Assembly: GCA_963843795.1 (NCBI GenBank)
Contig: CAWJLW010000006.1
Location: 1 to 64,000 of the forward strand
DNA from: an uncultured bacterium
GTDB lineage: Bacteria > Armatimonadota > Abditibacteriia > Abditibacteriales > Abditibacteriaceae
Length of the DNA stretch: 64,000 bases
Direction: 5' to 3'
The translations under genes were made by a program, and so were the position numbers. Position 1 is the stretch's first letter. Each line of letters begins with the position of its first letter. Of this stretch, positions 2,883-59,670 are shown piece by piece. A model generated the notes under the pieces. It searched no databases. It saw only the letters and a list, made by a program, of their open reading frames with translations, and was not told where the DNA came from.

Positions 2883-2922
2883 CGTAAATTTGTGCTGCAA
2901 GTACTTGCAGCACAAATTTACG
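2883..2922. repeat. 40-bp perfect loop-less palindrome centred on GCAAGTACTTGC
   Basis: CGTAAATTTGTGCTGCAAGT|ACTTGCAGCACAAATTTACG. Confidence 0.97.
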
Positions 2923-3010
2923 TGTTCGCTTGTCCTCGCTGCACTGTCGCAAAGTTGTTCCGCACAACAAATTTACTCAGCACACCAGATCGCTAAAAGC
3001 AGAAACAAAT

Positions 3011-4849
3011 ATGAAGAATTCAAGGCAACATTTTCTACCCTCACTGTTATTGAGCACAGGTTTTGTCATGGGTGCGTTATCGCTGGCCAACGCGTCTCCC
3101 GTTACCGTCGCCAGTCCCGACGGCAAGGTAAAAGCGGAAATTTCCGATACCAGTGGCAAGCTGCGCTACCAAGTCGTCGTCGATAACCGCCCCGTGTTAC
3201 TGCCCTCGAATCTGGATATTCTGAGCAATGGCGTTGAACTCGGACAGAACGCCACTCTGGGCAAGCCACGATTCAGCCGAATCAACGAGCGTTACCGTTT
3301 TTTTGGCGGTAAAAACGAGGCCATCAATCAGGCGCGGTTGGCCACGGTGCCCGTCATTTCTCAAGGTGAGGCTTGCGAGGCGGATATTTACGTGGCCAAT
3401 GATGGCGTGGGAGTGCGCTTGCGCCTCGCTGCCAAAGCCCAGCGCAAAGTTGAGGCGGAGCGCTCCAGTTGGCGACTTGCGGGCGATCCGGTCGTGTGGG
3501 CCGCCGAGCACGATTTCGGTTACGAAAACACCTTCAAGACGACGAGCTTGTCCGGTTTGAATAATCGGGCTTACGGACTTCCACTCACCGCGAAAGTGGG
3601 CAATATCTATGTGACGCTCGCTCAGGCGGGCCTCAAGGATTACGGCGATATTCAGGTGAAGCGCAATGCTGAGGGCGCTTTGGAAGCCTCGCTGTATGCC
3701 GATCCGCAGGGCTGGAATACTAACGAGGCTGTCGTTCAGCCCTGGCGCGTCACTCTCGTAGCGCGCAACCTGAGCGATCTGGTGAACAGCACCTTCGTGT
3801 CGAACTTGAATCCCCCGCCTGACCCCGCGTTGGCCAAAGCGGATTGGATTCGCCCCGGTCGCTCCAGTTGGCAATGGATGGCGATTGGAGCGCCACGGGC
3901 TGACGATCAGAAGCAGTGGGTGGACTGGACAAAGCAGTTGGGTTTCGAATACTATCTTGTTGATGAAGGCTGGTCGGGGTGGCCAAACGGCTGGAATACT
4001 CTCAAATCGGTGTGCGATTATGCCAAAACGCAGGGTGTGGCGATTTGGGTGTGGGTTCACAGCAACGAAGTTTCGGAACCGGCGGCGCGAAAAGCTTATT
4101 TTCGCAAGCTGGTCGAAACGGGAGCGGTCGGAGTGAAGATCGACTTTCCACGCGCCGCTAATCGTCAGTGGGCCAATTGGTATTACGAAACGGCCAGTGA
4201 CGCCGCCGCGAGCCATCTCATGGTGGATTTCCACGGAGCGGTTGGGGCCACAGGTCTGGAACGCACCTGGCCAAACGTCCTGACCCGCGAAGGAGTGCGA
4301 GGCCACGAGTGGCACATAACTCGTTACAGGCGGATTTTAGAGCCTCAACACGACACGATTCTACCCTTCACTCGTTACCTCTCCGGCCCCGCAGATTACA
4401 CCCCCACCGTTTTTGAACCGAAGGAATTGCAAGGCAATACCTGGGCGCACGAGTTGGCGCAGGCCATCGTGTTTACCTCGCCCTTTCTTTGCACGGGCGG
4501 TCATCCGCGAGATTATTTGAATAAGCTTGCCAAAGACGTGCTGACAAAGATTCCTGCCGTCTGGGATGAAACGCGCGTTCTGCCCTGCAGCGAACCCGGA
4601 AAAATCGCCGCCTTCGCCCGTCGTTCCGGCAACAACTGGTTTATCGGGGTACTCAACGGAGCGGAGGCAAAGACCTTGAATTTACCTCTTGATTTTCTCG
4701 GTCGCGGCCAGTGGAAGATGACGCAGTTGAGTGATGTCGCAGACAAAGCCGACGCTTGGAATCGTCAGGAGAACATAACCACCAAAGCAGCGGCTCTGTC
4801 GCTGAAACTTTCCTCGCGCGGCGGGTATGTCGCTTGGCTGCGCAAATAA
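3011..4849 (+). CDS. GH97 family glycoside hydrolase (alpha-glucosidase/alpha-galactosidase-like), secreted
   Basis: Signal peptide, VASPDGK, YYLVDEGW, GVKIDF, VDFHGA, RTWPNVLTREGVRGHE, PFTRYLSGPADYTP, PAVWDETRVL. Confidence 0.92.
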   Translation: MKNSRQHFLPSLLLSTGFVMGALSLANASPVTVASPDGKVKAEISDTSGKLRYQVVVDNRPVLLPSNLDILSNGVELGQNATLGKPRFSRINERYRFFGGKNEAINQARLATVPVISQGEACEADIYVANDGVGVRLRLAAKAQRKVEAERSSWRLAGDPVVWAAEHDFGYENTFKTTSLSGLNNRAYGLPLTAKVGNIYVTLAQAGLKDYGDIQVKRNAEGALEASLYADPQGWNTNEAVVQPWRVTLVARNLSDLVNSTFVSNLNPPPDPALAKADWIRPGRSSWQWMAIGAPRADDQKQWVDWTKQLGFEYYLVDEGWSGWPNGWNTLKSVCDYAKTQGVAIWVWVHSNEVSEPAARKAYFRKLVETGAVGVKIDFPRAANRQWANWYYETASDAAASHLMVDFHGAVGATGLERTWPNVLTREGVRGHEWHITRYRRILEPQHDTILPFTRYLSGPADYTPTVFEPKELQGNTWAHELAQAIVFTSPFLCTGGHPRDYLNKLAKDVLTKIPAVWDETRVLPCSEPGKIAAFARRSGNNWFIGVLNGAEAKTLNLPLDFLGRGQWKMTQLSDVADKADAWNRQENITTKAAALSLKLSSRGGYVAWLRK

Positions 4850-4922
4850 CATCGGGGGCAAAACGTCGCCGCGACTTGAATAAACGACCGCTTCAACAAG
4901 CGCAACTGCACTTCTTTCAACC

Positions 4923-7576
4923 ATGTTTACACTCAAACACACCCTTCTTCTGACTTTTCCGCTCGCGATTTCGGGCGCGCTTCAAGCTCAGTCAGCACCG
5001 ATTCCGGTGAAGGCTTTCGTCAAAAACGCCGATGGTCTCACGGTTCAAATGAATCCCGGACTGCTGAGGCTGAAGGTGTGCGACGCGCGCACCGTGCGCG
5101 TGCTTTACACGCCAGACGACAAAATTCCGGTGCCAAAAAGCTACGTCATCACGCGCCAATGGAAACCTGTTGCCTTCAAAACCCAGCAAGATGCCAAATC
5201 CATCACGCTTTCAACCGGAAGTTTGCGTGTGGTCGTAAATAAAACGACTGGAGCCGTCACTTTCCTTGATGCGGCGGGACGTACTCTGCTGGCAGAGACG
5301 GCGAATGGCGGAAAAACGCTCACGCCCACCAAAGTCGGCGCGGAGCAGACTCATACGGTGCAGCAGGTCTTTCAAAGCCCACCCGATGAGGCGCTTTACG
5401 GGCTGGGCCAATATCAGGATGGCCTGTGGAACTGGCGTGGCATTCCGCTGGAAATGCGTCAGGTGAACACCCAAATCGCGGTGCCGATGCTGGTTTCCAG
5501 CAAAGGTTACGGCCTGCTTTGGGATAATGCCTCGCTCCTCGATTTCAATCCGGCAGACCAACAAATTCGTCTCGATGGCAGCTCCGCGCCCGCAGTATCT
5601 GGGGCTCAGCCCTTGGCAACGGAAGATTTGGGTCGTGCTCCGATTGACATGAGCAAGCTCGGCAAAAAGACCGGCACGTTTACCACCGGTGAGGCCGGAG
5701 ATTACGTGTTTCTGGCCAAAGATGGCAACCGCCGGGGCGATTTCGCCATCATCGTCGATGGACGACAGGTCGCTGGCGTGACCAACGTGTGGACGCCTTA
5801 CGCACTCAGCGCCAAAGTGAAGTTACCGGCTCGCACCACAGTTACAGTAGGATTACGAGGCGGCGGCGAGAATACCAACCTCTTCGCGCGTCCGGTGGGT
5901 AACACCACGACATTTCGCTCGCAGATGGGCGAGGCCATCGACTACACCTTTTTCTACGGCCCCAAGTTCGACGACATCATCGCCGGTTATCGCTATGCCA
6001 CTGGTGCGGCTCCGATGTGGCCGAAATGGGCTTATGGGTTCTGGCAGTGTCGCGAGCGTTACTCCAGCCAGAAACAGATCGTGGATACGGTGGCCGAATT
6101 TCGCAAACGCCAAATCCCGATGGATCTCATCGTTCAAGATTGGCAGTATTGGGGGCCGCACGGATGGGGCAGCTATCAATGGGATGAGCGGCCATATCCC
6201 GACCCTGCTGGCATGCTCAAGAATTTGCACGATCAGAATAGCAAATTTATGATTTCGACCTGGCATAATCCGCATGGCACGGCCCTTGAGAAATTAAAGA
6301 GTGTCAACGGTATGATTGGCGAGTGGATTGACGTTTATAATCCAGAAGCTCGTCGGGTGCGCTGGAAAGCTCTTGACGAGGCCTTCTTTTCCATCGGCAC
6401 CGACGCCTGGTGGAACGATGCGACCGAACCCGGCGACCCTGGAGAAGGCTTGACGGGTCAGAAAACCGCGATGGGAACTGGCGACCGTTTGCGCAACTCT
6501 TATCCGCTTTTCGCTGCTCAGGGCGTTTATGAAGGACAGCGTTCTTCGTCATCCGCAAAACGAGTCTCAATCTCACGCGCTCGGCCTACGCTGGTATGCA
6601 GCGTTATGGAGCGGCGGCTTGGTCGGGCGATATCAATGGCAACTGGGAAACCTTCAAGCGCCAAATTCCGGCGGGTTTGAACTTCAGTCTGACCGGCATT
6701 CCTTACTGGACAACGGACGCTGGCGGTTTCTTCCATCCGAACGGCCAATACACTTCGGCAGATTACAATGAATTGCTCGCGCGCTGGTTCCAATGGAGCA
6801 CCTTCAGCCCAATTCTTCGCATTCACGGTTACCAAACGGAAACCGAAATGTGGAAATGGCTGCCCGAAACTCAGAAAATCCTGCTCGCCTACGATGAATT
6901 GCGTTACCGGATGTTGCCCTACAACTACTCGGTGGCGTGGAAAGTCACCAACGAGGGTTACACCATTATGCGCCCGTTACCGATGGATTTTTCCAACGAT
7001 CCGAAAACTCTCAATATCTCCGATGAATACCTTTTCGGCCCCGCATTTCTGGTGGTGCCAGTTACCGAATCCATCAAAGACAACGCGGCGACTCGCAAGG
7101 TCTATCTTCCGGCGGGAACGGACTGGATCAATTTCTGGACGGGCGAAAAGCTGCGTGGTGGCCGCGAGATCGTCGCGTTGGCACCGGTTGAACAGATTCC
7201 AATTTTCGTGCGGGCCGGTTCCGTTGTTCCTATGGGGCCAGTCGTCCAATACGCGGATGAAAAGAGCGATGCCCCGTTGGAGGTGCGCGCTTATCCCGGC
7301 GCCGATGGCACCTTCGATCTTTACGATGACGAAGGCGATAATTACAACTACGAAAAGGGCGCGCGTTCGGTAACGACCCTGCGCTGGAACGATAAGCGGC
7401 AACAACTAACCATCAGCGCGCCTCAGGGCCGTTATCCAGGCCAGGCCGCTCAGCGTCAATTTCGCGTCGTGGTCGTCGGTGCAGGGCGCGGAATCGGCAT
7501 CCCAGTGGCCTCAAAGACACAAGCGAATGCGGAGCTTACTCAAAAAGTAAGCTCAGTAAAACTGACTCTCAACTAA
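4923..7576 (+). CDS. GH31 alpha-xylosidase-like enzyme with PA14-like insert; -1 frameshift near 6567
   Basis: LYGLGQYQDG, PKWAYGFWQCRERY, IVQDWQYW, DAWWNDATEP. The second ORF has QRYGAAAWSGDI, GIPYWTTDAGGF, LYDDEGDNYNYEKG. One missing base restores LTRSAYAGMQRY. Confidence 0.9.
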
Positions 7577-7640: not shown

Positions 7641-7656
7641 CTGCAAGTACTTGCAG
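7641..7656. repeat. Palindrome copy CTGCAAGTACTTGCAG
   Basis: Exact 12-mer at 7643-7654, intergenic. Confidence 0.95.
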
Positions 7657-8180: not shown

Positions 8181-8331
8181 GCAGGGCAAACGCACGAGAG
8201 TTTTCTATCACCTGAAGCTGCAGCTTGAAGTCTGTGGCTGGCTGCCATTCTGCATGAGCACGGTTCCTGCAAATACTTGCAGGCCCACGGCACGCCTCAA
8301 AACTCAGGAAACTCTCGTGCGTTTGCCCTGC
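8181..8331. mobile_element. Putative 151-bp MITE with 23-bp perfect terminal inverted repeats
   Basis: GCAGGGCAAACGCACGAGAGTTT (8181-8203) and its exact reverse complement (8309-8331); no ORF inside; no obvious target duplication. Confidence 0.6.
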
Positions 8332-12916: not shown

Positions 12917-12974
12917 AAAAGCAAAAAGCGCGCTGCAAGTACTGCGCAGTACCTGCAGCGCGCTTTTTGCTTTT
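12917..12974. terminator. 58-bp near-perfect palindrome with doubled core variant; likely bidirectional terminator
   Basis: AAAAGCAAAAAGCGCGCTGCAAGTACTGC|GCAGTACCTGCAGCGCGCTTTTTGCTTTT, one mismatch; lies between convergent genes. Confidence 0.8.
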
Positions 12975-14776: not shown

Positions 14777-14821
14777 ATTTCAAAAACGTCCCGCAAGTAA
14801 CTTGCGGGACGTTTTTGAAAT
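14777..14821. terminator. 45-bp hairpin with 13-bp core variant GCAAGTAACTTGC
   Basis: ATTTCAAAAACGTCCCGCAAGT-A-ACTTGCGGGACGTTTTTGAAAT, downstream of the minus-strand TPR gene. Confidence 0.75.
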
Positions 14822-16987: not shown

Positions 16988-17035
16988 AATTGTCATTTCA
17001 GTGCTGCAAGTACTTGCAGCACTGAAATGACAATT
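16988..17035. repeat. 48-bp perfect loop-less palindrome centred on GCAAGTACTTGC
   Basis: AATTGTCATTTCAGTGCTGCAAGT|ACTTGCAGCACTGAAATGACAATT. Confidence 0.97.
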
Positions 17036-17057: not shown

Positions 17058-18923
17058 TCACAAAGGTGCGAACAAACCTTCTAAGCCCGGAGTTTCTTTT
17101 TCTAAACGCTTTTCCAGCGCTTCCATTTCTTCCTGCAATTCATACGGCAGATGATCGCCAAAACGCTCATAGTTTTTTCGGATATCATCGGCCTCGCGTT
17201 GCCATTCGCTTTCGTCTACCGCAAGTACTTGCCGCATGGTTTCCAGAGAAATTTTTAAGCCTTGGGTATCAATATCGTCGGGCGTCGGTACCAAGCCTAT
17301 CGGCGTAATCTGTGCCTTGGCGGGCGTGGCGCTTTTTTCATCATCGGCGTCGCAGCGCTCGAAAATCCATTTCAATACACGCGCGTTTTCGCCGTAGCCC
17401 GGCCACATAAACTTGCCGTTTTCATCTTTGCGAAACCAGTTGACAGCGAAGAATTTGGGCAGCGTAGTGCGCGCGCCGCCGCTTTCCATATCGAGCCAGT
17501 GCGCGAAATAATCATCCATGTGGTAACCGCAAAACGGCAGCATCGCAAACGGATCGCGCCGAATCTTACCGACCGCACCGCTGGAAGCCGCTGTCGTTTC
17601 GCTGGCAATCGTTGAACCCACGAAAACCCCATGCTTCCAATCAAACGCTTGAAACACCAACGGCACCGTTGTCGGACGGCGACCGCCGAACAAAAACGCC
17701 GAAATTGGCACGCCGAACGGATCTTCCCATTTTGGGTCAATCGAAGGACATTGAGCTGCCGCAACCGTGAAACGCGCGTTCGGATGTGCCGCTGGAGTTT
17801 CGCTTTTCGGTGTCCATTCTTCGCCGCGCCAATCGATTAAGTGCGGCGGCGCAGAGTCGGTCAAACCTTCCCACCACACGCCGCCTTCGGGCGTTAATGC
17901 CACGTTAGTGAAAATCGCATTACGCGCCAAAGTTTTCATGGCGTTCGGGTTGTTATCCGGTGAAGTTCCCGGTGCTACACCGAAGAAGCCGGCTTCGGGG
18001 TTAATCGCATACAAACGTCCGTCCGCGCCCCATTTCATCCATGCAATATCATCACCGACCGTCTCGACTTTCCAACCCGGCAAGTGCGGCTGCAACATCG
18101 CCAAATTCGTCTTGCCGCAGGCCGAAGGAAACGCTGCGGCGATATATTTTTTGCGCCCCTCGGGATTGGTCAAGCCCAGAATCAACATATGCTCGGCCAA
18201 CCATTTATGATCGCGCGCCATCTTCGAAGCGATGCGCAGGGCGAAACATTTTTTGCCCAAAAGCGCGTTGCCGCCATAACCGGAGCCGTAGCTCCAAATT
18301 TTGCGCGCATCGGGAAAATGCGCGATGACAGTGTTTTCGGGATCGCACGGCCACGGCACATCTTCTTGGCCTTCGGCAAGCGGCATTCCGACCGAATGCA
18401 AGCAGCGCACGAACGGATTATCACCCAATATATCCAACACATCGCGCCCGACGCGCGCCATAATGTGCATGGAAGCTGCGACATACGGCGAATCGGTCAC
18501 TTGAACGCCGATGAGTGAAATACGAGAACCCAGTGGCCCCATCGAAAACGGAATCACGTACATCGTGCGCCCACTCATGCTACCATCGAACAAACGATAA
18601 AGTTCGGTTTTGGTAGCTTTGGGTTCGCGCCAGTTATTGGTCGGCCCAGCATCGCTACGCCGCCGCGAGCAGATGAAAGTGCGCTCTTCAACTCGTGCTA
18701 CATCACGCGCATCGGAGCGGCACAGGTATGAATTGGGATGCAATTTTTCGTTTAGTTTGAGCGCGGTACCTTGTTCAACCATTAAGTCGCACAGCAGTTG
18801 ATATTCCTCGGGTGAACCGTCGCACCAGTGAATTGCTTTGGGCCGACATAAAGCGACTTTACCGGCGACCCAATCGAGCAGTAATTCGTTTAATGTCCAA
18901 TTGTAGGGAAAATTTAAATTCAC
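17058..18923 (-). CDS. pckG: Phosphoenolpyruvate carboxykinase (GTP); start codon approximate
   Basis: [81 protein letters not shown]. Confidence 0.96.
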
Positions 18924-18942: not shown

Positions 18943-18960
18943 GTTGCAAGTACTTGCAAC
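18943..18960. repeat. Palindrome copy GTTGCAAGTACTTGCAAC in a divergent intergenic region
   Basis: Exact core 18946-18957; imperfect extension AAAGCC...GGCTTT. Confidence 0.95.
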
Positions 18961-19769: not shown

Positions 19770-19946
19770 GTATTTGCGCTAAGTTTCGCCGTAAATAACT
19801 CCTGCAAGTACTTGCACAGCATAGAAGTCGCTCTTAAGTGAGCTTGTAATGCAACTTTGCCTGCGTGCTCGCGTCGAAAACCTTTACGCTGATAAAGCGT
19901 AAATTCAATCAATAAGAATAGAAACGAATATCGTAAGGAAAATTTC

Positions 19947-21146
19947 ATGAAAACACGCTTTTTAATGCGTCGCACTTTGTTAATCGCACTGCTGGCCAGC
20001 GGCGTTGGTGCAAGTACTTGCACTCTCACGCGTGCTCAAAATGCGGCACCCGCCGTTGCCGCCGATGAACTGATTCCACTGCGCGCCAAATGGACACAGG
20101 GCGAAAAATTATCTTATGAAATGCGCTTGGACGGCACGATCAATATGCAAGCCTCGCGCAATAGACCCTCACCTTTCGCGGGTGTGCCACTCGATATTGA
20201 CATGAAAATGTTGGGCGCGACCACTTTGGAAACCCTCAAAGTCGATGAAATGGGTACAGGAACCGTCGCTATGAGCCTGGACGGATTGAAAGTTCTGGCG
20301 CAAAGTTTCGGGCAAAAAGCCGAAATCACTGTCAATAATGGCGAAACTGTATTTTTGCTCAACGGCAAGCGTATGGGCGCACAAAACGCCAAAAAGCCCA
20401 ATGAAGTGAAGAAAATTGAAGCGCCTTTCGCGCTGGAAATTTCCGATCGGGGTCGCATTTTAAAAGCTGTGCCCACTGCCACAGAACCAGTTGTTGAAAA
20501 CGCCGAAGGGGCAGCAAAGCCTAATCTTCTGCCATTCAATTTTAATCAAATGGCGGAATCAGTTTTCTGGCGCATCATTCCCGCATTATGGCCAGCACAA
20601 GCTGTGAAAATCGGTGATAAATGGGCTTCTGAAATCTCATGGCCCGTGCCCGCAGTGGCCGCTACTCAAGGCGATGCCACTAACATTCAACCCGCTCAAC
20701 TCGGCCACTTCGATTTCGAGTTGAAAGGCAGCGAAAACGTTGCCGGTCGTCGGGTTGTGCGCGTGGGCATTGACGGCAAAGTCGAACTCGACGAGGCTCA
20801 GTCGCGCAATTTGAGCATGGCCGCGAAAAATGAAGTTGATAAGCGCGTTCAAGAAGCTATCGATAAAGCCAAAATCGAGGGTGCAAAAGTCGCGGCACCG
20901 GTGCGCCCACCGTTCAGCACGCAGCTCAAAGGGGTAGCGCAAAAAATTAATGGCAACATCTGGGTCGATGCCGATAAGGGTCAGATCGTGCGCGCCGAAC
21001 TCAACATTGAAGGTCAAACTTCGGCGCAAGATGTGCCCGATAACGCCAACGTGAAGCTCAAAGATGGCGAATCGTGGTTCGATTTCGCGGGCACGATGCA
21101 ACTGCAATTGAAGCCGCCCACTGCGACACCTGTCGTCTTGCCCTAG
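19947..21146 (+). CDS. Secreted hypothetical protein (beta-rich, DUF6263-like)
   Basis: 399 aa ORF with signal peptide; LRAKWTQGEKLSY and WPAQAVKIGDKW motifs. Confidence 0.7.
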   Translation: MKTRFLMRRTLLIALLASGVGASTCTLTRAQNAAPAVAADELIPLRAKWTQGEKLSYEMRLDGTINMQASRNRPSPFAGVPLDIDMKMLGATTLETLKVDEMGTGTVAMSLDGLKVLAQSFGQKAEITVNNGETVFLLNGKRMGAQNAKKPNEVKKIEAPFALEISDRGRILKAVPTATEPVVENAEGAAKPNLLPFNFNQMAESVFWRIIPALWPAQAVKIGDKWASEISWPVPAVAATQGDATNIQPAQLGHFDFELKGSENVAGRRVVRVGIDGKVELDEAQSRNLSMAAKNEVDKRVQEAIDKAKIEGAKVAAPVRPPFSTQLKGVAQKINGNIWVDADKGQIVRAELNIEGQTSAQDVPDNANVKLKDGESWFDFAGTMQLQLKPPTATPVVLP

Positions 21147-21163: not shown

Positions 21164-21195
21164 AATCTGCGCTGCAAGTACTTGCAGCGCAGATT
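21164..21195. repeat. 32-bp perfect loop-less palindrome centred on GCAAGTACTTGC, followed by a T-tract
   Basis: AATCTGCGCTGCAAGT|ACTTGCAGCGCAGATT TTTT. Confidence 0.97.
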
Positions 21196-22495: not shown

Positions 22496-22529
22496 AAAAC
22501 TGTGCTGCAAGTACTTGCAGCACAGTTTT
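22496..22529. repeat. 34-bp perfect loop-less palindrome centred on GCAAGTACTTGC between tRNA genes
   Basis: AAAACTGTGCTGCAAGT|ACTTGCAGCACAGTTTT. Confidence 0.97.
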
Positions 22530-23146: not shown

Positions 23147-23701
23147 ATGAAAATGACTTTTCCTTTCTCTGTTATCGCTTTCTGCGCTTTGCAAGTACTT
23201 GCAGGTGCCCAAACCTCTGTGCCCGCTCCCGATTTGACCCAGCGCGCTCGTTATGCGCAGCGCGTCGAAATCGTCGGCAGCGATATGCGCTGGGCCGACG
23301 CCAACCTGTGGCGCAGTTGGGAGCAATACGAAGATTTAGACAAGAAGCTGCAAAAGCCTACCCGCAGCGTCGATGTAGAAGCCACCAAAACCGAACTGGC
23401 GACACAAAAATCATTCATCATTGAACACATCGCCAAAGTGCGGGCTAACGCCAAACGTTTGCGCGCGCTTTCGCCCGTTCCACGCGCGTGGAAGAAAGTG
23501 GATGATAAACTGATCGAAGCCTCGCTCGAATGGGAAACTGGTGTTGAAATTCTGGAAACTTGGCTTTTAGTTCCTTCGGACGAAACGCGAAATAATTGCG
23601 CCAAACATCTGCGCCGTGCCCAAACCGTGTGGAATGATGCGCAGCAGGAATTAACGCGCAAAACCGATCCACAGCTGGCCACAAAAAAATATTTCGATTA
23701 A
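23147..23701 (+). CDS. Secreted helical hypothetical protein
   Basis: 184 aa ORF with signal peptide, co-oriented with tadA. Confidence 0.7.
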   Translation: MKMTFPFSVIAFCALQVLAGAQTSVPAPDLTQRARYAQRVEIVGSDMRWADANLWRSWEQYEDLDKKLQKPTRSVDVEATKTELATQKSFIIEHIAKVRANAKRLRALSPVPRAWKKVDDKLIEASLEWETGVEILETWLLVPSDETRNNCAKHLRRAQTVWNDAQQELTRKTDPQLATKKYFD

Positions 23702-24227: not shown

Positions 24228-25751
<1,524 letters not shown>

Positions 25752-26706: not shown

Positions 26707-26726
26707 TGCTGCAAGTACTTGCAGCA
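26707..26726. repeat. Palindrome copy TGCTGCAAGTACTTGCAGCA
   Basis: 20-bp perfect palindrome, intergenic. Confidence 0.95.
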
Positions 26727-27052
26727 GGCCTTAGGCTGGAACTCTTTGAGCAATATTGATCAGCATCGATTTATCGCGCACTCCAAGCAAAGTTCGCGAA
26801 GCTAGTGAATATAATGTAGCCATAATTCCTTTCTGGCTCATTTTAAATCGCGAAGTAATTCCATTTTATCGAAGATATCGACGGCTACAACTTGCGAAAT
26901 GTCAGTTCCATTCGCATAATCAACGACGATTGTATAATGGGTTCATTTTCTCCTGCAGGGACTTGCGCTGCAATCTCGGCGCAAACTTCATTCATAACCA
27001 TTTAATCAGGAAAAAGAGTGAGCCAGTCAAAAGTCAAAACGTCTTTTCGTGC

Positions 27053-28111
27053 ATGACTGAAATCGTTGCAGAAAAGCCCGTCGCAAGTACTTGCGCACCG
27101 AAATTATGGATGCCAGAGCGCGTGATTTTTACGCCTGCCGCACTCGATGAAGCGCACGGACAGCGAATTCTTCGACGCTTGCAAGCGCTTGATTTGCCGA
27201 TTGAATATGCAAAATCAAATCGCATCACTGATGTGCGTGGCGCAAACGAGCGAGAAACTTACAACCGGGCGAAGCGCACCTTGGCCGTTGTGAACGCGCC
27301 TCTTGGGCAATTGAAGTTGCAACCTATTCCGCCCAGCGCCGATTGGCAATTCCATCTCGCGCAAGGTTGTCCAGCGCATTGCCAGTATTGTTATCTCGCG
27401 GGAAGTCTCAGTGGGCCGCCTCTGGTGCGCGTTTACGCGAACTTGCCGCAGATTTTGGATAATCTGGCGCAATATGAAAGCGGTAAAGAAACCAGTTATG
27501 AAGTTTCGTGCTACACCGATCCGCTTGCGCTGGAACATCTTACGGGAAGCCTCAGTGAGTGCATTAATTATTTCGGCACGCGCGAAAATGGATTTTTGCG
27601 CTGGGTTTCTAAATTCGATAATGTGGATGATCTGCTTAATTTGAATCATAATCGCCAAACGCGCTGCCGTTTCAGCGTCAATGTGCCAGAAATTTCGCGA
27701 CGTTTGGAGGGTGGAACGTCAAGTGTTGTATCTCGAATAGGTGCAGCCAGTAAATTAGCGTGCGCGGGTTATCCCATCGGTTTTGTCATCGCGCCAATTA
27801 TGCCGGTTGAAAATTGGAAAGAAGCCTACAGCGACTTGTTAGAAAATATCGCAATGGAAATCGGTAATGATGCAGATGTGACTTTCGAATTGATTACTCA
27901 TCGCTTTACGCCTGGCTCGAAAGACGTTTTACTGTCGTGGTATCCAAAGACGAAATTAGATTTAGAGGAAAGCGGCCGCAGTGAAAAGCGCAATAAGTTT
28001 GGTGGAGTGAAATATGTTTACCCTCGCGAAACGATGAAGGAATTGCGGGCGTGGTTTGAAAGTGAAATCGCGCGGCGAATGCCCAACGGGCGCGTGTTGT
28101 ATTGGACGTAA
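27053..28111 (+). CDS. splB: Spore photoproduct lyase family radical SAM protein
   Basis: AKRTLAVV, IPPSADWQFHLAQGCPAHCQYCYL, TDPLALEHLTGSL, FELITHRFT, KFGGVKYVYP, LYWT. Confidence 0.88.
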   Translation: MTEIVAEKPVASTCAPKLWMPERVIFTPAALDEAHGQRILRRLQALDLPIEYAKSNRITDVRGANERETYNRAKRTLAVVNAPLGQLKLQPIPPSADWQFHLAQGCPAHCQYCYLAGSLSGPPLVRVYANLPQILDNLAQYESGKETSYEVSCYTDPLALEHLTGSLSECINYFGTRENGFLRWVSKFDNVDDLLNLNHNRQTRCRFSVNVPEISRRLEGGTSSVVSRIGAASKLACAGYPIGFVIAPIMPVENWKEAYSDLLENIAMEIGNDADVTFELITHRFTPGSKDVLLSWYPKTKLDLEESGRSEKRNKFGGVKYVYPRETMKELRAWFESEIARRMPNGRVLYWT

Positions 28112-28157
28112 AGCGGATGCTGCAAGTTACTTGCCCACAGGAATTTCGCGATTTGAC

Positions 28158-28211: not shown

Positions 28212-28285
28212 GCGCTCATAGCTCAGCTGGTTAGAGCGCCACACTGATAATGTGGAGGTCCCTGGTTCGAGTCCAGGTGAGCGCA
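28212..28285 (+). tRNA. tRNA-Ile(GAT)
   Basis: GCGCTCA...TGAGCGC acceptor stem; CCACA-CTGATAA-TGTGG anticodon arm; hairpin 28289-28323 follows. Confidence 0.95.
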
Positions 28286-29907: not shown

Positions 29908-29945
29908 CTCCAACGCTTCTGCAAGTACTTGCAGAAGCGTTGGAG
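29908..29945. repeat. 38-bp perfect loop-less palindrome centred on GCAAGTACTTGC
   Basis: CTCCAACGCTTCTGCAAGT|ACTTGCAGAAGCGTTGGAG. Confidence 0.97.
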
Positions 29946-30035: not shown

Positions 30036-33000
30036 ATGAAACAACAGATTCGCTTTCTCATCTTGCTGGCCGCGACTTTTCTGGGTTTTGGCGTCGTGCT
30101 TTACGCTTGGGCGGCGATGCTTAAACCGCAACTCAGGGCTGTGGCCATTAGTTATCCCAAGTCCAAAATTCAGGAGATCGAAACGCTGCGCGCTACCCGC
30201 TTCGATCCCAAGAACCCGCCCACCGTCCAACGCGATGTGGAATATGAGCGCGGCAAGGCGGCGGCATGGTATCCCAAAGGCGAATCGCCGATTTTGGCCG
30301 AGCTGGTGAAGGACAAAAAATTGCTGCCGGTCGCCGAGCGCGTGGGGCCGGAGCCGTTGGTATTGGAAGGCGTGGACGGCATTGGCAAGTACGGCGGGAC
30401 GTGGATTCGCGTCGCCAATTCGCCCGGCGATGTGAGCGTGATTACCTGGCGTCTGGCCGGTGCGACGATGGTGCGCTGGTCGCCGATGGGTTATCCCATT
30501 CGCCCCCAGATCGCCAAAAGTTGGAAGGTTAGCCCCGACCGGCGCGAATGGACCTTCCATTTACGAAAAGGCATGAAATGGTCGGATGGGCACCCGTTGA
30601 CTGCTGATGACGCCGTGTATTGGTGGCAAGCCGAGCAGAAGAAAATCGCTGCGACTCCGGTGCCCTGGATGACGGTGGGCGGAAAAACCGGTGACGTGGT
30701 GAAGGTGGACGATTACACCATCAAATTCGTCTTTCCCACGTCCAACGGCGTGCTGCTGGAGCGACTGGCCGGTGCCACTCCCTTTTCCCCACGTCACTAT
30801 CTGGAAAAGTATCATCCCGACCTGGGCGATCAGGAGCTCATCAAGAAAACCATGGCGGCGCGCGGCCTGACTTCGGCGCGCGCGCTTTATACCGCGCTGA
30901 CCGATTTTCGTAATCCCGCACATCCGCGCTTATGGCCGTGGATTTATCGCACCTACAAAGCCAGTCCGCCGGAAAGTTTCGTTCGTAACCCCTACTTTTA
31001 CGGCGTAGACCCGCAGGGCAATCAACTTCCCTACGTCGATAGAGTGCTGTTTGAAGTAAAAAGCCCCAAACTCATCCCGATTTCCGCAGCCAGTGGCGAC
31101 GTGACCATGCAGGCGCGTCACATCGCCTATGATAGCTACACCATGCTGATGGAGAACCGCGCGCGCAACAACTACGATGTTTATCACTGGTTTCCGGCTT
31201 CGCGCTCGGCGTTCACGCTGTGGCCCAACAACAATCGCCGCGTGTTGCCCAACGATGCGACTTCGCGCAACAAAGCCGCTCTGTTAGGTGATAAGCGTTT
31301 TCGACAGGCGCTTTCTTTAGCCATCAACCGCCAACAGATCATCGATTCCATCTACGCTGGATACGGTGAACCAGCGCAAATCGACCCGGGCCGTGAATCG
31401 GAGTTTCACTCCGAAAAGCTGATGAAAAGCTTCACCCAACACGATCCGCAACGCGCCAATACAATGTTGGACGCGTTAGGTTTGGATAAACGTGACATTG
31501 AGGGCATGAGGACATTCCCTGATGGTTCGCGCATGACGTGGTATATTGACTTCACCGACTTCACTGGAGAAGGCCCCAGTCAGTTCGTGGTGGACAACTG
31601 GCGCGAAGTGGGCATCCGCGCCATCCAACGCGAACGCTCGCGCCCATTGTGGACGACCGAAAAAGCGGCTCTGGTTCACGACTTTAGCGTGTGGACGGGC
31701 GAAAGCGAGTTCAATCCGCTGGTCGAGCCGCGCTCTTTTGTAGCGACTTACGGCGAATCACACTTTGCTCCGGCGACGGGTATCTGGTATCAAAAGGGCG
31801 GATTATATGGAAATCCCAAAGCGTTGCAGGGAGGTATTGAGCCGCCCAAAGGTGGCCCGATGCGCCGCGCTCAAGAATTGTTCGAACAAGCGCAGCAGGC
31901 CCCGTCGCGGGCGCGCCAGATCGAGCTTTTTAAACAGATCACCGATATCGCCGCAGAGAACGTGTGGTCGATTTCGATTGCCACGCCGCCGCCGCAGCTC
32001 GCGGTGGTGAAAAAGGGTTTTCGCAATGTGCCGCGCAACGTGATTTACGGCGCGTCGTACAACACGCCCGCCAACGCCGGAATCGAAACCTTTTACTTTG
32101 AAAAACCGAGCGATTCACCCGGAGCAATCGCGCAGATCAAGAGTGAAATGACCCATATCACGCTCGCCCCTGACGCAGCGCGCGCCGAGACAGAGCAGAG
32201 TGGTCAAAGCGGCGGTTTGAGCGGCTTTATCAAGCTGCTAATTTATGGCACTTTGGCGCTGGGCATGGCGTTAGTCGCAGTGCGCCATCCTTACATCGGG
32301 CGGCGCGTGCTGATTATGATCCCGACGCTGTTCATCATTTCGTTGGTGACTTTCGCCATCATTCAGCTTCCCCCCGGCGATTTTATCGAAACGCGTATCA
32401 CCGAACTGCGCTCTACAGGCGATGAGGCCGCTATCGAGGAAGTGGGACGCTTGCGCGAAATGTTTCATCTGGATGAGCCGATTGGACAGCAGTATGCGCG
32501 TTGGATGGGCTTGAAGTGGTTCCTGTCCTTCGATGAGGCCGACAAAGGCTTGTTGCAGGGTGAGATGGGCCGCTCGATGGAAACACAGAAAACAGTTAAC
32601 GACATCGTTGGCGACCGTGTGGCGTTGACCGTTTTGGTATCGCTGGGCACGATTCTTTTCACTTGGGCCATCGCCATGCCCATCGGCATCTATTCGGCGG
32701 TGCGGCAGTATTCGTGGGGCGATTATGTGCTGACCTTTGTCGGTTTCATCGGAATGTGCGTGCCCAACTTTCTGCTCGCCATCATCCTGATGTACGGGAG
32801 CAGCAAGTACTTGGGCATCAACGTTACCGGCCTGTTCTCGCCCGAATACGCTGCCGCGCCAGAATGGACGTGGGGCAAAATTGTGGACTTGCTGCAACAC
32901 ATCTGGGTGCCGATTATCGTTATCGCTACAGCGGGAACGGCGGGCATGATCCGCGTCATGCGCGGCAACCTGTTGGACGAACTTCGCAAACCGTATGTGA

Positions 33001-38069: not shown

Positions 38070-38354
38070 CCCTCTTGAATAGGAAGCTTGGCTACCATTC
38101 ATCAACAGCCGCTGCGTCGAATGGATGCAGCGGCCGTGCAAGTACTTGCACGGAACCTTTCTTAAAATTGTTGATACTGCTCAATGTCTGCGCATATGCA
38201 AGCCATGTTAAAGTCAGCTTATAGCCCTATTTTAGGGAATCAACTCGAAATTTACCTTGAAGAACCAAAAGTCTGATTAGTAAAAGCAACACCAAGTCCT
38301 GTTTTTTCTTATCTGTTGGCTTTCCAGGTTCGGGAGAAATTGATAGCTTTCTCC
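38070..38354. repeat. Dispersed repeat copy A (hairpin + GCAAGTACTTGC palindrome + 155-bp conserved block)
   Basis: 38200-38354 aligns without gaps to 56055-56209 (115/155 identical by hand count). Confidence 0.8.
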
Positions 38355-40473: not shown

Positions 40474-43212
40474 CTACTTCACTTCGACAACGGCCTTCTG
40501 GCGCACATCATCCGAAGCGCCGCCCACTTGCAGTTCGTAGCGTCCCTTGGCGACCACGTAAGCGCCCTTCTTCTCGTCCCACAAGCGCAGGCGCGAGGCC
40601 GGAAAGCTCAGGTCAACCGTCGTATTGGCGCCTCGCGCTACCGGAACCCGTCTAAAGGAAACCAGGGTATGCAAGGGCGAGCGGGCGTTGCCGGCACCCA
40701 ATCGGCGCGCGTAGAGCTGCACGACCTCGGCCCCATCGCGCATTCCTTTATTGCTCACTAGAACTCGCACGCTGATTGGGCCACTTGCACTCGCATTACG
40801 GGCCGCCCGCAACGGGCCATAACTCCATGTCGTGTAGCTCAAGCCGTGCCCGAAAGCCCACTGCGCCTGGCCGCCGAAGTAGCGGTAGGTACGATTTTTC
40901 ATGCTGTAATCTTCAAAGGCGGGCAGGTCGCTTGTGGCGCGGTAGAACGTCACCGGCAGGCGGCCTGAGGGGTTGGATTCGCCAAACAGCGTCTGAGCCA
41001 CCGCTGTTCCTCCCGACTGGCCTGGATACCAGACTTGCAGGATGGCCCCGACATTGGCGGCCTCCCACGGCATCGCGACCGCGCCGCCGCTGCAGTTGAC
41101 GAAGACCAGCGGCTTGCCCGTCGCCTGGAGCGCCTGGAGCAAGTGCGTCTGGATGGCGGGCAGCTCGATCTGGGTGCGGTCGCCGCCGCTGAAGCCCTCG
41201 AAGCTGACTCGCATCTCCTCGCCTTCGAGTTGCGGACTCAGCCCGCCCACGTAAATCACCGCGTCCGCTTGGCGCGCTGCGTCCAGAGCAGCCACGAAAT
41301 CAGGCGCGTTCTCGTCAATGGCCTCGCCCGGACGCAGCGCCAGCGCGCAACCACGCGCGGTGATGATGCGCGTGTTCTGGCCCAGATGGTCGCGTAGGCC
41401 CTGTAGAACCGTAATGGGATGGGACGGCTCGCCGTTGTAGTTGCCCAGCAGCACGCTCCGTGCGTCGGCGTTGGCACCAATCACAGCCAGCGTTTTGATC
41501 TTGGCCCGTTCCAGTGGCAGCACGCCGTCGTTCTTGAGCAGCACCAGCGCTTCGCGCGCGGTCTGCAGCGCGACCTGTGCGTGCGCGGGCGTGTCGTTTT
41601 CGCTGGCGGGGATGCGGGCGTAAGCCGAAGTACTGGGGCCATCGAAGAGACCCAGGGCAAGGCGCACGTCCAACACACGACGCAGCGCGCGGTCAATTTC
41701 GGGTTCGGTAATCAAACCCTGCTTGACTGCCGCAATCAGATGCGAATAGGAGGCGCCGCACTCCAGGTCGGTGCCCGCTTTGATGGACAGACTGGCGGCT
41801 TCCTCAAAATTCTGGGCGTACTTGTGTCCCTGCGACACGTCGTTGATGGCACCACAATCCGAGACCACGTGCCCCGTGAAGCCCCATTTGTCGCGCAGAA
41901 TGTTTTGCAGCAAGAAGGTGTTCGCCGGGGCCGGCACGCCGTTGATGGCGTTATAAGCGCTCATCACCGAAGCCACTTTGGCCTCGCGCACCGCGGCCTC
42001 GAAAGCGGGCAGATAGGTGTTGTAAAGGTCGGTCTGTGAAGGCAGAGCGTTGAAGCTGTGCCGGCTCGACTCAGGCCCAGAGTGAACCGCGAAGTGCTTG
42101 GCGCAGGCGGCGGTCTTCAGCGTGTTCGGGTTGTTGCCTTGAAGGCCGGTGATGAAAGCCACGCCAAAGCGCGAGGTCAGGAAGGGGTCTTCTCCGTAAG
42201 TCTCCTGGCCGCGCCCCCAGCGCGGGTCGCGGTAGATGTTGATGTTGGGCGTCCAGAAGGTCAGCCCGTGATAGATGCTGAAGTCGCCTCGCGCCTGCGC
42301 CTCGGCATACTTGGCGCGCGCTTCGGTCGAGACTACATCCGCAACGCTGTGGATGAGCGTGGTGTCCCAGGTCGCCGCCATGCCGATGGCCTGCGGGAAC
42401 ACCGTCGCGGTGCCCGCGCGCGCCACACCATGCAGAGCCTCGTTCCAGTAGTTGTAGCGCGGCACCTTCAAGCGCTCGATGGCCGGGGCGTCGTTTTGCA
42501 ACTGGGCCACCTTCTCGGAAAGTGCCATGCGCGAGATCAGATCGTTGACGCGCGCGAGGCGTGGCCGCCGCGCGTCAAGGTAGATCGGGGCGGTCTTCAC
42601 GGTGGGAATCGCAGTGGCAAAAGCGGTTTCCTGCTCCTCGATTTGCGCGGCCGTCGCGCCTGCAAGTACTTGCCCATCGGCGTCCAGGATGCGAATCGCG
42701 TTGAACTTCGCTTTGTCGGCCTTGGCTGTGAACGAGATGGTGAGCGGCCCCTGCGCGTCGCCGCGATGCTCGACGCTTCCGATCACGCGCGTCGCCTTGC
42801 CCCGTCCGCCCGCTGCGGCGAAGATGTCGTAGTTCTCGGCCAGCCTCTGCGTGCCCACGGCGATGTCCATCACGCGCGCTCCGACAGCTTGCTGATACTG
42901 CTCAGCCAAGTCGATTTCAACCGTGTACTTGCCTGCGGGCAAGCCGGAGATGGCCACCGAGAAGGCGGAGCCGTAGATTTCCTTCTTAAACCAGTCGGGA
43001 GGGAAAACGCCCGCGTCTTGGAGCGGGGCGGCGGTCGTGTAGTAGGCGAAGTCGCCGCGCACCGTGATGCTGGTTCCGGTGCAGCAAGGCATTTCTGAAG
43101 TGGGCGCTACAGGTGGTACAGGCGCCACAGGCGGCAGAGGCGCGGCGTGGATGAGCGGAGCCAGGCTGAGGCAAGCCGCGGTGGTCAAGAGAGCTAAGGG
43201 TTTGAAATTCAT
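40474..43212 (-). CDS. Second malectin-GH3-Fn3 beta-glycosidase, secreted
   Basis: YDIFAAAGG, WNEALHG, GLTFWTPNINIYRDPRWGRGQETYGEDP, KHFAVH, VVSDCGA; intact ORF. Confidence 0.93.
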   Translation of the reverse strand: MNFKPLALLTTAACLSLAPLIHAAPLPPVAPVPPVAPTSEMPCCTGTSITVRGDFAYYTTAAPLQDAGVFPPDWFKKEIYGSAFSVAISGLPAGKYTVEIDLAEQYQQAVGARVMDIAVGTQRLAENYDIFAAAGGRGKATRVIGSVEHRGDAQGPLTISFTAKADKAKFNAIRILDADGQVLAGATAAQIEEQETAFATAIPTVKTAPIYLDARRPRLARVNDLISRMALSEKVAQLQNDAPAIERLKVPRYNYWNEALHGVARAGTATVFPQAIGMAATWDTTLIHSVADVVSTEARAKYAEAQARGDFSIYHGLTFWTPNINIYRDPRWGRGQETYGEDPFLTSRFGVAFITGLQGNNPNTLKTAACAKHFAVHSGPESSRHSFNALPSQTDLYNTYLPAFEAAVREAKVASVMSAYNAINGVPAPANTFLLQNILRDKWGFTGHVVSDCGAINDVSQGHKYAQNFEEAASLSIKAGTDLECGASYSHLIAAVKQGLITEPEIDRALRRVLDVRLALGLFDGPSTSAYARIPASENDTPAHAQVALQTAREALVLLKNDGVLPLERAKIKTLAVIGANADARSVLLGNYNGEPSHPITVLQGLRDHLGQNTRIITARGCALALRPGEAIDENAPDFVAALDAARQADAVIYVGGLSPQLEGEEMRVSFEGFSGGDRTQIELPAIQTHLLQALQATGKPLVFVNCSGGAVAMPWEAANVGAILQVWYPGQSGGTAVAQTLFGESNPSGRLPVTFYRATSDLPAFEDYSMKNRTYRYFGGQAQWAFGHGLSYTTWSYGPLRAARNASASGPISVRVLVSNKGMRDGAEVVQLYARRLGAGNARSPLHTLVSFRRVPVARGANTTVDLSFPASRLRLWDEKKGAYVVAKGRYELQVGGASDDVRQKAVVEVK

Positions 43213-51682: not shown

Positions 51683-51698
51683 CTGCAAGTACTTGCAG
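51683..51698. repeat. Palindrome copy CTGCAAGTACTTGCAG
   Basis: Exact core 51685-51696. Confidence 0.95.
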
Positions 51699-55879: not shown

Positions 55880-56209
55880 TTCTTGAATGGGAAGCTTGTC
55901 AGGCATAAAATCACTTTTGACGGTCACCCCAGAATCATCCTGTTTTGAGTGCGAGCTTACTGGCTACAACTCATCAAAAGCCGCTGCATCAATTCGATGC
56001 AGCGGCTTTTGCAAGTACTTGCAAGGGGCTTTTACCCTCAAAATGGTTTACGATAAGCCATGCTAAAGACAGTTTATAGCCATATTTCAGTGAACTAACT
56101 CGAACCTTACCTTAAATGAATAAAGGTCCGGATGGTAAAGGCCACACTCGGTACTTGTTTTCCGTATTTGTTGGCTTTACATGTTGGGGAGAGATCAACA
56201 GCTTTTCCC
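55880..56209. repeat. Dispersed repeat copy B
   Basis: CTTGAATGGGAAGCTTG, AGCCGCTGCATC..GATGCAGCGGC hairpin, TTGCAAGTACTTGCAA and the 155-bp block, matching 38070-38354. Confidence 0.8.
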
Positions 56210-57684: not shown

Positions 57685-57709
57685 GTTGACACAATCTATC
57701 TGACACCTT

Positions 57710-57961
57710 CTACCGTGGGCTCGTCGATTCAGGTCGCATTGTTTATGGCGCCACTTTTGGTCATCTGTCGCATTTCACCCCCCATCCGATGAATGTGGTA
57801 TTTTCCATCCGCTGAAATTAATCGCCATCGCGAGCGTGGCATTTGCGGTCAATGCCATCGCGCAAGATGGTGAAATCACACGGTTCGAAGGCGTCTTGCT
57901 ACTGGTGGTTTACCTGTTGTTCGCGATGGCATTCTTTTACGTCACGCCCGCTACCTCATAA
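57710..57961 (+). pseudogene. Ca2+/H+ antiporter (CaCA/ChaA-like) C-terminal fragment
   Basis: Hand translation [30 protein letters not shown]; truncated upstream by IS256 ends. Confidence 0.7.
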
Positions 57962-58029
57962 CGACTTCACGAAGACCTCATAACGAGTCAAAATGGCCTG
58001 GCAAGTGCTTGCCAGAGTTGCCAGGCCAT

Positions 58030-59520
58030 TTTGATGCGCGTTTAGCCACAATGCACGCTTTCCAATTCCGAATTCGCCACCGAACTCCAGCGTCAGCGCT
58101 GCGATGCCATGGGGCGGGATTTCCACGCTGAAACTGACTTCGCCGTTTTTAAATTCAAATTCCAAACTTTCGGGCACCATCTGCGATGCGGCTTGCAGCC
58201 ATTGATGTTCGCGCGCGTTGGGATAAGCCGGTGGCCCAACTCCCACAAACCGTGCGCGTTAGCGTGATTATCATCAATGCGCTCGATTACCAAGCAGCGC
58301 GGGCGCGCTAAATGACTCAGTTTCAATTGCACGTTTTTGACTCGCGATTTCATGGCGCGGGATGCGTGATTGCACAACAAAATTGTGGCGCGCTGGGCAT
58401 TTGAATCGCGAAGGCACCAGGCCTCAACCGTCGCGTGCTCGCCGCTGAGTGGCAATTGTTCCTCGCCCAGCCGGTGCAACAGTTCAAAGGCGCGATAAGC
58501 GGGCTTGGCGATATTATGCATGGTGAGCAAACCAAAGCCGCCTTGAAAGGCGCGGTCGGGCATCTGGTTTTCGACGAAAATATCGCTGAATGTCCAAATC
58601 GAATAGGCATCGACGATGCCTTGCATTTCCATGACGGTTTTAAGGTCGAACGCCGCCGCGTAAGGTTGGTCGTGCAAGTCATCGCGCGGGTTCGAACTGG
58701 AATTCCATTCGGTATAAAACAACGGTTTCGTACCGACCTGTCGGCGCGCGGTTTGAGCTTGTTTGCGCAACATGGCGCGCTCGCCTTGCGCGAGCTTGCT
58801 GATGGTATCGTCGTCGGGTTGTCCCAGCGCATCAGTGGGATAATGATGCGTGGAAACGAAATCACAGGGCAACTCTTCGCGTTCGCAAAACTCGCCGAAT
58901 TCGACGAGCCAAGCGTTTTTAGCCGTCGTCGGACCGCCGACTTGGAGCTTTGAATCGACATTTTTCAAAGCTGTGACAGTGTGTCGATACAATTCGAAAT
59001 ATTGGCTTTGTGTGCCGCTCCAAAAGCTGTCCATATTCGGTTCGTTCCATACTTCGAAATGCCAGCGTCGCACTTCTTCAGCCCCATATCGCGTTATGAG
59101 ATGACGGGCTAGAGTCGTCATCAAATCGTCCCACAAACGCCAATCTCGGGGCGGGGGCACGTTCGAAGCGTAATGCATCACGGTGTGGCTGCCCGAGGCC
59201 AGAGTCGCGGGCATAAATGACAGTTCGAGCCATGGCGTCATACCAATGGACAAAAGAAAATCGAAAATTTGATCAAGGTTGAAAAACGAGTATTGGGTTT
59301 GGTTGCCACGACACAAAATCGTGTCCATCGGCGAGGACAGCAAACCATGAAAGCGCACGCTTTGCATGCCCAACTCGCGATGACAACGCTCGATTTGAGC
59401 TTGCCAATCGGCACGCAAAGCCAGCGGTGCATGACCGCTCCCGATAAGGCGCTCCCAAAAATGTGGAAAAGGCGTGCTGGGGTCAGAAAAATTGCCGGAA
59501 AATGTCGGAGAATTTTGCAT
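58030..59520 (-). CDS. GH39 beta-xylosidase, frameshifts near the C-terminus
   Basis: VRFHGLL, ELSFMP, FEVWNEP (acid/base), DFVSTHHY, FYTEWN (nucleophile), WTFSDIF, GGFGL. Confidence 0.9.
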
Positions 59521-59670
59521 ATGGCCACGAATCGCAACCCGAATGCCGCAAACACCTGCGACGTCCGTAACCGGAAAATCTCGTAAACCAAATGGCGACC
59601 TTACGCTCTTGATGAGCCGGATTGGGAAAGGCCAGCACCTTCGCCGTTGCCAGTACTTGCAACGGTTCAT

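Follow-up and report, generated by a model that had tools for sequence, protein, structure and literature searches.

A highly iterated 12-bp palindrome with helically phased flanks in Abditibacteriaceae: a possible self-DNA tag

The described systems closest to the element reported here are the highly iterated palindrome HIP1 of cyanobacteria (GCGATCGC), together with the alternate HIPs, and the uptake sequences of naturally transformable bacteria. As set out in the relevant sections of PMC4390886, PMC5861425 and PMC13756078, HIPs are perfect palindromes that recur about once per 1–1.7 kb in genes and spacers, are gained by substitution, have few near-copies, and contain a four-base core of the methylase type, with an orphan methyltransferase in the genome. 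The DNA uptake sequences (DUS) of Neisseriaceae and the uptake signal sequences (USS) of Pasteurellaceae reach thousands of copies, form dialects around a conserved core, occupy permissive positions and alter the encoded peptides; they are also co-opted as terminators, appear as foreign dialects in acquired DNA and have AT-rich flanks, according to the parts of PMC3630211 and PMC7811141 that treat them. In this work we analysed the first 64 kb of contig CAWJLW010000006.1 (C6), hereafter the window, from the genome (G000) of an uncultured member of the Abditibacteriaceae, in which the 12-mer GCAAGTACTTGC had been noticed as a repeated palindrome.

By definition, this motif is a highly iterated palindrome, though distinct from HIP1, and it is at most a candidate uptake sequence. 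It is similar to the HIPs in all the features listed above, but its word is not GCGATCGC, its phylum is not that of the cyanobacteria, and it spans 12–14 bp instead of 5–8; moreover, it is respelled between species of one genus and reaches a 14-fold higher density in spacers than in genes. Phased A/T flanks and a place at terminator centres set it apart from HIP1 on Nostoc plasmid alpha, a single plasmid on which we detected no flank phasing (247 sites) and no extended palindromes (0/250). With DUS and USS the motif has in common the traits described above, including type IV pilus and ComEA/ComEC genes encoded in the genome, but it is palindromic, its flanks are phased for about 100 bp in either direction, and a ComP-like reader was not identified. 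As a short palindrome suiting a dimeric protein it also recalls the SlmA-binding sequence, the matS site of MatP and parS. The SlmA site has an AGTACT core, as the original prediction pointed out, yet that comparison fails on distribution, since about 2,600 copies are spread evenly over the whole chromosome and not confined to a region; the five parS-like sites of G000 have another sequence and lie together at parAB. In PMC6379681 the gyrase binding motif is described with symmetric AT/GC flanks in helical phase across 100–200 bp; the present element differs from it by a strict 12-bp core, a smooth decay of amplitude from the centre and the absence of a surplus of non-hairpin copies where genes converge. 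Finally, intergenic hairpins in hundreds of copies are typical of repetitive extragenic palindromes (REP) and bacterial interspersed mosaic elements (BIME) with their REP-associated tyrosine transposases (RAYT), and of Ssn-associated repeats, whereas here there is no conserved arm, insertion signature or intact cognate enzyme. Over-representation of GCAAGTACTTGC, AAGTACTT or AGTACT was not found in print, although supplementary or subscription-journal oligomer tables could hold the word; articles on Abditibacteri- and palindromes were unrelated by title, and those on natural transformation concerned soil DNA decay only.

The genome of 4.30 Mb (11 contigs, 92% complete) contains 2,567 copies of GCAAGTACTTGC, about one per 1.7 kb and on 11 of 11 contigs, compared to 0.65 expected under a Markov-3 and 20 under a Markov-4 background. 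The enrichment is therefore genome-wide and not peculiar to the window. The full palindrome is favoured: the left triplet is GCA in 5,134 cases and each of the other triplets is found in at most 70, and all single-mismatch variants together amount to only 506. The (GC)-flanked context proposed as preferred is borne out by 1,289 copies of TGCAAGTACTTGCA and 377 of GCTGCAAGTACTTGCAGC. Within the window, all 17 exact copies and all 10 near-copies previously counted by eye were recovered, the latter being of mixed kinds (substitutions, insertions and a deletion); matches with at most one mismatch number 21 against 0.13 expected, a figure reached in 0/100 shuffles. A scan of a wider collection of genome contigs with the 16-mer gave 36 scattered single loci and was uninformative.

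To describe where the copies lie, we used our own gene calls (3,408 genes, 85% coding, with starts often truncated) and 2,563 non-overlapping copies. Genes contain 743 of them, a density of 20 per 100 kb, and intergenic DNA the other 1,820, at 282 per 100 kb. Coding copies occupy all three reading frames (487/143/113) and distort the proteome, in which QVL is found 927 times against 353 expected, KYL 311 against 114 and ASTC 131 against 4. When coding copies were aligned with relatives' orthologues at 45% identity or more, 39 of 49 were gap-free within 9 bases, as were 637 of 691 random positions, and a smaller alignment set gave 23 of 33; amino-acid identity at the copies was 0.35 versus 0.63. 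Therefore, we conclude that coding copies arise by in-register substitution at permissive sites and not by insertion. The core is kept at the same position for 3 of 8 copies in the congener G001 and for 2 of 36 in G009 and G012.

The density along the chromosome is even, ranging from 47 to 83 copies per 100 kb over 34 bins, with 64 both at the dnaA region and at the terminus region. Spacing is also more even than in a null model with the same coding/intergenic split (coefficient of variation 0.89 versus 1.20). Coding copies number 7–9 per 100 kb at less than 200 bp from an intergenic copy and 45 at 2–3 kb, a roughly sixfold rise, while four control words stay flat. Similarly, in genes of 600–1200 bases the density per 100 kb falls from 32.5 without a flanking copy to 22.1 with one and 7.2 with two, a trend also present below 2 kb and irregular for longer genes. 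All together, the benefit of a site saturates over 1–2 kb. Two islands, with insertion sequences or a type I restriction locus, account for the longest copy-free gaps (26 kb each); the AGTACT words in them are spelled as in other dialects.

The sequences around the palindrome follow a phased A/T pattern. On either side, A/T dinucleotides are most frequent at distances of about 5 + 10.5n bases from its centre, out to about 100 bp. In 570 isolated coding copies the amplitude of this phasing, in windows from 20–52 to 84–126 bases, is 0.050, 0.033, 0.026, 0.018, 0.016 and 0.007; in 820 non-hairpin intergenic copies it falls from 0.056 to 0.012, and controls matched for the first T-tract gave 0.000 ± 0.004. 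The genome-wide AA/TT period of G000 is 11.2, unlike the 10.5 of the motif flanks. In addition, pairs of motifs 18–80 bp apart lie on the same helical face (114 pairs, Rayleigh p ~1e-9, five periods tried), and no helical phase was detected in 97 pairs 81–199 bp apart. Flank phasing is also found in G009, and in G015 together with G038 (period ~11). As judged from these patterns, the flanks are shaped for a predicted one-directional bending centred on the palindrome. They had been regarded as otherwise unrelated to one another, which is correct in that they do not belong to one mobile element, but does not extend to their common phased A/T pattern nor to the 499 copies lying in extended palindromes.

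These 499 copies extend by at least 8 further bases into perfect palindromes, against about 6 expected from shuffled flanks, and their arms are of 430 distinct sequences. Terminator-like hairpins in G000 total 849, of which 536 are centred on exact and 106 on near copies (642/849, about three quarters), and 246 of the 325 hairpin copies in co-directional gaps are located 10–50 bases 3' of a stop codon. The hairpin copies look like ordinary terminators with overwritten centres. About four fifths of all copies have no extended stem, and hairpins are few in G009 (7/298) and missing in G012 (0/124). Direct doublings of the 12-mer number 13, and those printed lie at hairpin centres.

We compared 27 Abditibacteriaceae genomes, including G000, and 200 other genomes of the phylum. 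Six of the family genomes, belonging to two genera, are motif-rich (G000, G001, G009, G012, G015 and G038; three of them are only 63–89% complete), each with thousands of R-AGTACT-Y words in which the AGTACT core is fixed and the flanks form species dialects (GCA-, CAA-, TCG- and (Y)G-). The exact 12-mer itself has 0–3 copies in each of 30 relatives; G001 contains 2,725 AAGTACTT, mainly as CAAAGTACTTTG, and RAGTACTY, spelled TCGAGTACTCGA or CGAGTACTCG, is counted 3,805 times in G009, 4,371 in G012, 3,262 in G015 and 2,695 in G038. The signal had been proposed as lineage-specific; it is indeed restricted to a lineage, but one wider than the 12-mer, with relatives spelling the surroundings of the core differently. 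None of the 200 other genomes of the phylum is motif-rich (no count above 354), and genera g2 and g5 are depleted (0–45 versus 60–418 for control words). The motif was lost in two of six g6 genomes and respelled genome-wide between congeners. The family genomes are kin, and the motif possibly has a single origin.

Several other repeated words were observed in this set. G006 (loci L106-L108 and L146-L150) has 2,412 AGTACGGTCGA half-sites. Most belong to a palindrome of 24 bp that has T tails and a GAATTC-like centre and is largely intergenic and REP-like; it could be a REP or else a derived dialect. A non-palindromic high-copy word, CAGCCACG, occurs at about 60–87 per 100 kb on both strands in G007, G018 and G016 (L052-L055, L125-L131, L201-L202, L094-L096); its A/T flanks are phased at roughly 11 bp in G007, and in G016 it belongs to a longer REP-like unit. 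The motif-poor g6 genome G017 carries clusters of other species' dialects on contigs C1, C26, C30, C59 and C63, which are either acquired DNA or bin contamination. A link to AGTACT-rich jumbo phages was considered and rejected: PBECO4 (W01, KC295538) has 891 AGTACT in 348 kb, but its flanks are unphased, and the homologues it has in common with G000 are housekeeping only.

The sole match to N4/N6 methyltransferases in G000 lies at C6:2517365-2518135. Its orthologue is present in all six motif-rich genomes and in 21 of 26 relatives overall (two with internal stops), and for this reason we rejected it as sole cause of the motif. In G034 and G017 the methyltransferase gene has a tail-to-tail neighbour that matches a profile of type II restriction enzymes (E 3e-8 and 6e-12); in G003 such a nuclease-like gene is 1.5 kb away, and in G005, G011 and G032 the two are on separate contigs. 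The nuclease-like gene is found in 13 of 26 relatives, namely in none of the six motif-rich genomes and 13 of the 21 others (Fisher p 0.016, overstated as the genomes are kin). No such gene was detected in the six frames of G000 with a 103-sequence profile, nor in G009, G012, G006 and G007, and G015 has a 30-residue nuclease remnant adjoining the methyltransferase gene. The observed/expected ratio of GTAC is at most 0.10 in 10 of 12 sampled nuclease carriers (stretches of 14–120 kb; G011 left out) and 0.07–0.87 in seven motif-poor genomes without nuclease. Because GTAC is avoided in nuclease carriers, the two genes would encode a GTAC-directed methyltransferase–nuclease pair. The nuclease-like family (L083:800-1447, L087:695-1411, L180-L183; alignment A1) is represented in 13 family genomes, Verrucomicrobia and cyanophages, and its carriers tend to be without GTAC; no Pfam or NCBIfam family and no solved relative matched it, and Atlas gave weak leads only, to a PvuII-like fold (18% of one cluster) and to ScaI-like folds, which stayed below threshold. 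A start resembling a signal peptide was assigned to 95 of 116 homologues with a crude rule based on hydrophobicity. In cyanophages with distant homologues GTAC was at 0.00, 0.02 and 0.39 versus 0.67 and 0.31 in two non-carriers, a weak comparison on one 18-kb stretch each.

Taken together, we tentatively favour, as quite possible, the reading that the 12-mer is a palindromic self-DNA tag driven by natural transformation and probably methylated at GTAC. According to this proposal, DNA fragments carrying the 12-mer would be favoured in transformation, through binding and uptake or through processing just afterwards, so that copies would accumulate; a putative reader of two-fold symmetry would bend the DNA at the site. 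The GTAC core would be methylated by an orphan N6-type methyltransferase, the remainder of a former methyltransferase–nuclease pair, and loss of the nuclease would let GTAC-centred sites spread, while relatives that keep it would purge GTAC. The tag would then have been co-opted as the centre of terminator hairpins. Origin by substitution, saturation on the kilobase scale, bend-shaped flanks and dialects might all follow because whole fragments would be favoured for a well-placed site. The required machinery appears to be encoded: ComEC was found in 27 of 27 family genomes and ComEA in G000 by profile searches, DprA, ComF, PilB/PilT-like and type IV pilus genes in G000 by motif, as well as 33 prepilin-like proteins, of which none could be assigned as the receptor. 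There are published precedents, in that methylated HIP1 raises transformation in Synechococcus (10.1101/2024.09.10.611283), and in that uptake sequences are described with conserved-core dialects, permissive regions and terminator sites in sections of PMC3630211 and with AT-rich flanks and kinking as uptake begins in sections of PMC7811141. The earlier suggestion, a signal of the HIP or uptake type that a dedicated factor maintains, is supported by enrichment across the genome in copies that do not belong to one repeat family.

Several observations weigh against a transformation-driven tag. The competence genes are also present in motif-poor relatives and do not track the motif, and pilC is apparently split in the G000 assembly. 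No reader protein was identified for the 12-mer; 39 clusters of copies, taken as pointers to an autoregulated reader gene, gave no convincing candidate. Established uptake sequences are non-palindromic, none being called palindromic in the sections seen of PMC3630211 and PMC7811141, with overlapping dyad forms mentioned for Simonsiella. Phasing to 100 bp exceeds any length we found described for uptake sequences, and it is lacking in G012 and does not rise over the null in G001 (89 sites). As for the enzymes, the methyltransferase occurs in 16 motif-poor genomes too, and its nearest solved relative is M.RsrI, the target of which is GAATTC and not GTAC. GTAC is partly kept in two nuclease carriers (0.26 in G017, 0.59 in G003) and is low in two genomes without nuclease (0.12 in G007, 0.07 in G016), and kinship inflates the significance of the nuclease split.

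The same data were compared with four other explanations. If the sites were anchors of a dimeric chromosome-organising or topology protein (a nucleoid-associated protein, an SMC loader or gyrase) bending or wrapping about 200 bp, with one site per 1–2 kb selected, then the perfect palindrome in all six motif-rich genomes, the one helical face of close neighbours and the even spacing would be readily understood; symmetric phasing to about 100 bp resembles the 130-bp phased gyrase motif (described in part of PMC6379681), and a chromosome role has been put forward for HIP1 (in part of PMC5861425). However, no histone fold was found in 5 genomes, and HU is single and ordinary; the gyrase motif, in the sections seen of PMC6379681, is degenerate, with no strict 12-mer. 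The density of non-hairpin copies shows no convergent excess, being about 142 per 100 kb in convergent gaps, 162 in divergent and 222 in co-directional ones. The even distribution of the copies is unlike that of matS, SlmA and parS sites, and a word that congeners spell differently throughout the genome and that two of six g6 genomes have lost is a poor fit to an essential scaffold, so we regard an anchoring role as rather unlikely. The copies could also be a by-product of methyl-directed mismatch repair, as in Elhai's ratchet, in which methylated GTAC would direct strand choice and sites would be fixed until every base has one within about 1 kb. That model predicts about one site per kb with saturation (PMC4390886, section 3.4) and loss of sites on arrival of a cognate nuclease (section 3.5); both predictions agree with our data, and an orphan methyltransferase is present. 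The MutL of G000 (C6:899299-901179; L173-L177) reads CQHRAHE or NQHRAHE in five of five family genomes, with C in g1 and g6 and N in g2, a replacement of what we take to be the first aspartate of the endonuclease motif, and another nicking enzyme may therefore be needed. The MutL change, however, is found in motif-poor genomes too, a MutH-like gene was not found, and the nuclease candidate is missing exactly where the motif abounds; in addition, the ratchet does not predict phased flanks, which HIP1 lacks on the one plasmid assayed, and single mismatches are not concentrated at the ends, each of the six half-site positions having few. On balance this origin seems unlikely.

The intergenic location of the majority of copies and their hairpins invite two further readings, both of which meet greater difficulties. 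An RNA or transcription signal, such as a terminator loop, an RNase site or an anti-termination site, would fit the share of terminator-like hairpins centred on the motif and their position just past stop codons, but it leaves aside the stemless four fifths, the 743 copies inside genes in every frame and the scarcity of hairpins in G009 and G012, and helical phasing is a property of double-stranded DNA; an RNA signal as the primary cause is thus largely refuted and, in our estimate, very improbable. The alternative of a repeat of the REP or miniature inverted-repeat transposable element (MITE) type, spread by a transposase or a single-strand nuclease, could account for the 71% of copies that are intergenic and for the REP-like palindrome of G006. 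It is at odds with the gap-free coding alignments and with the diversity of hairpin arms. Moreover, the only Y1 transposase match, a RAYT-like gene at C6:751850-752357, is broken by an internal stop and flanked by its own unrelated GTAG-type repeats (25 genome-wide with at most 2 mismatches), and no small GIY-YIG gene was found, just frames of 450 and 672 residues. For most copies insertion is refuted, and as a general explanation it is scarcely credible; the motif is thus not one REP/MITE family, an outcome that would have undone the original prediction.

We return to the window, in which the density of 27 copies per 100 kb is one of the lowest along its contig, where the mean is 65. Five exact copies are centres of extended palindromes: 2897..2908 (40 bp, perfect, in the terminator-like gap after a glycosidase gene), 17006..17017 (48 bp, perfect, after the phosphoenolpyruvate carboxykinase gene), 21174..21185 (32 bp, perfect, 27 bases 3' of a stop codon), 22507..22518 (34 bp, with two tRNA-Arg genes either side) and 29921..29932 (38 bp, perfect). 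Copies at 7643..7654, 19804..19815, 38138..38149 and 51685..51696 are intergenic, that at 23191..23202 lies directly 3' of tadA and that at 26711..26722 in a divergent gap. Within genes, 17221..17232 and 18946..18957 map inside and at the 5' end of the phosphoenolpyruvate carboxykinase gene, 20010..20021 is in a coding frame translated ASTC, and 42662..42673 is within a beta-xylosidase-like gene; 27083..27094 is in the longest open reading frame (ORF) of a photoproduct-lyase-like gene (intergenic by our gene calls). The last exact copy, 56011..56022, is followed by 26.5 kb rich in insertion sequences, the longest stretch of the contig without a copy. One-mismatch copies are at 8269..8280, 32803..32814 (in a permease gene), 58001..58012 and 59649..59660, and two-mismatch copies start at 14407, 35109 and 45065. 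The variant with a central one-base insertion, GCAAGT(A/T)ACTTGC, has 66 copies in G000, including 14793..14805, at the centre of a long hairpin, and 28122..28134; its explanation as a long-read methylation artefact is unsupported, the matching variant occurring 0–3 times in four relatives. The near-copy noted at 12934 lacks one T in the assembly (12935..12945, first half of a doubled hairpin centre). This deletion is probably an assembly error, because one short-read contig of depth 2.5 reads an exact copy there.

Other features of the window and genome were recorded alongside. A 16S rRNA gene lies at 24228-25750 and, as nothing else in the window matches 23S or 5S, is an unlinked rRNA gene. 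A tyrosine integrase gene at 28212-29500 is directly 3' of tRNA-Ile, with IS3 and IS256 pieces and few motif copies downstream, a region that is probably an island. The alpha-glucosidase-like gene at 4923-7576 is divided between two frames, and a 1,093-residue ORF at 30036-34570 ends in an OppB-type permease; a long-read frameshift is possible in both cases. The radical SAM gene at 26756-28111 is spore-photoproduct-lyase-like, with a score under the family cut-off. Elsewhere in G000, the contig end at C6:3600000-3623414 (67% GC, type IV secretion-like genes, zero motif copies) may be a foreign element or a chimeric join, and C6:1261880-1270238 holds the single gyrA/gyrB pair, a topoisomerase IV paralogue not being found by BLASTP in our gene calls. 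Named homologues of one G000 protein, among them one at 77% in Abditibacterium utsteinense, assign the organism to the Abditibacteriaceae.

In conclusion, the data allow a broader proposal, which we put forward as doubtful and speculative: sequence-specific DNA exchange may have arisen independently from a restriction-modification pair. One Abditibacteriaceae branch without the nuclease would have turned a methylated, bendable GTAC palindrome into a self-tag with dialects, while sister lineages would export the nuclease as a gatekeeper cutting incoming GTAC DNA and purge their own GTAC. If true, opposite filters on transforming DNA, one the mirror image of the other, would have multiplied one four-base word into the thousands or eliminated it, and an exported site-specific nuclease would be a separate finding in its own right. 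The enzyme targets are directly testable, since the cultured family member Abditibacterium utsteinense encodes both candidate enzymes, and the 10.5-bp phasing and the filling of gaps over 1–2 kb are measurable constraints on a putative reader. Few independent cases bear on the long-standing question of how HIP1 and uptake sequences originate and are kept, and the 27 family genomes, with motif-rich, motif-free and GTAC-purged lineages, dialect shifts within a genus and the enzyme pair in differing states, constitute a natural experiment on it.

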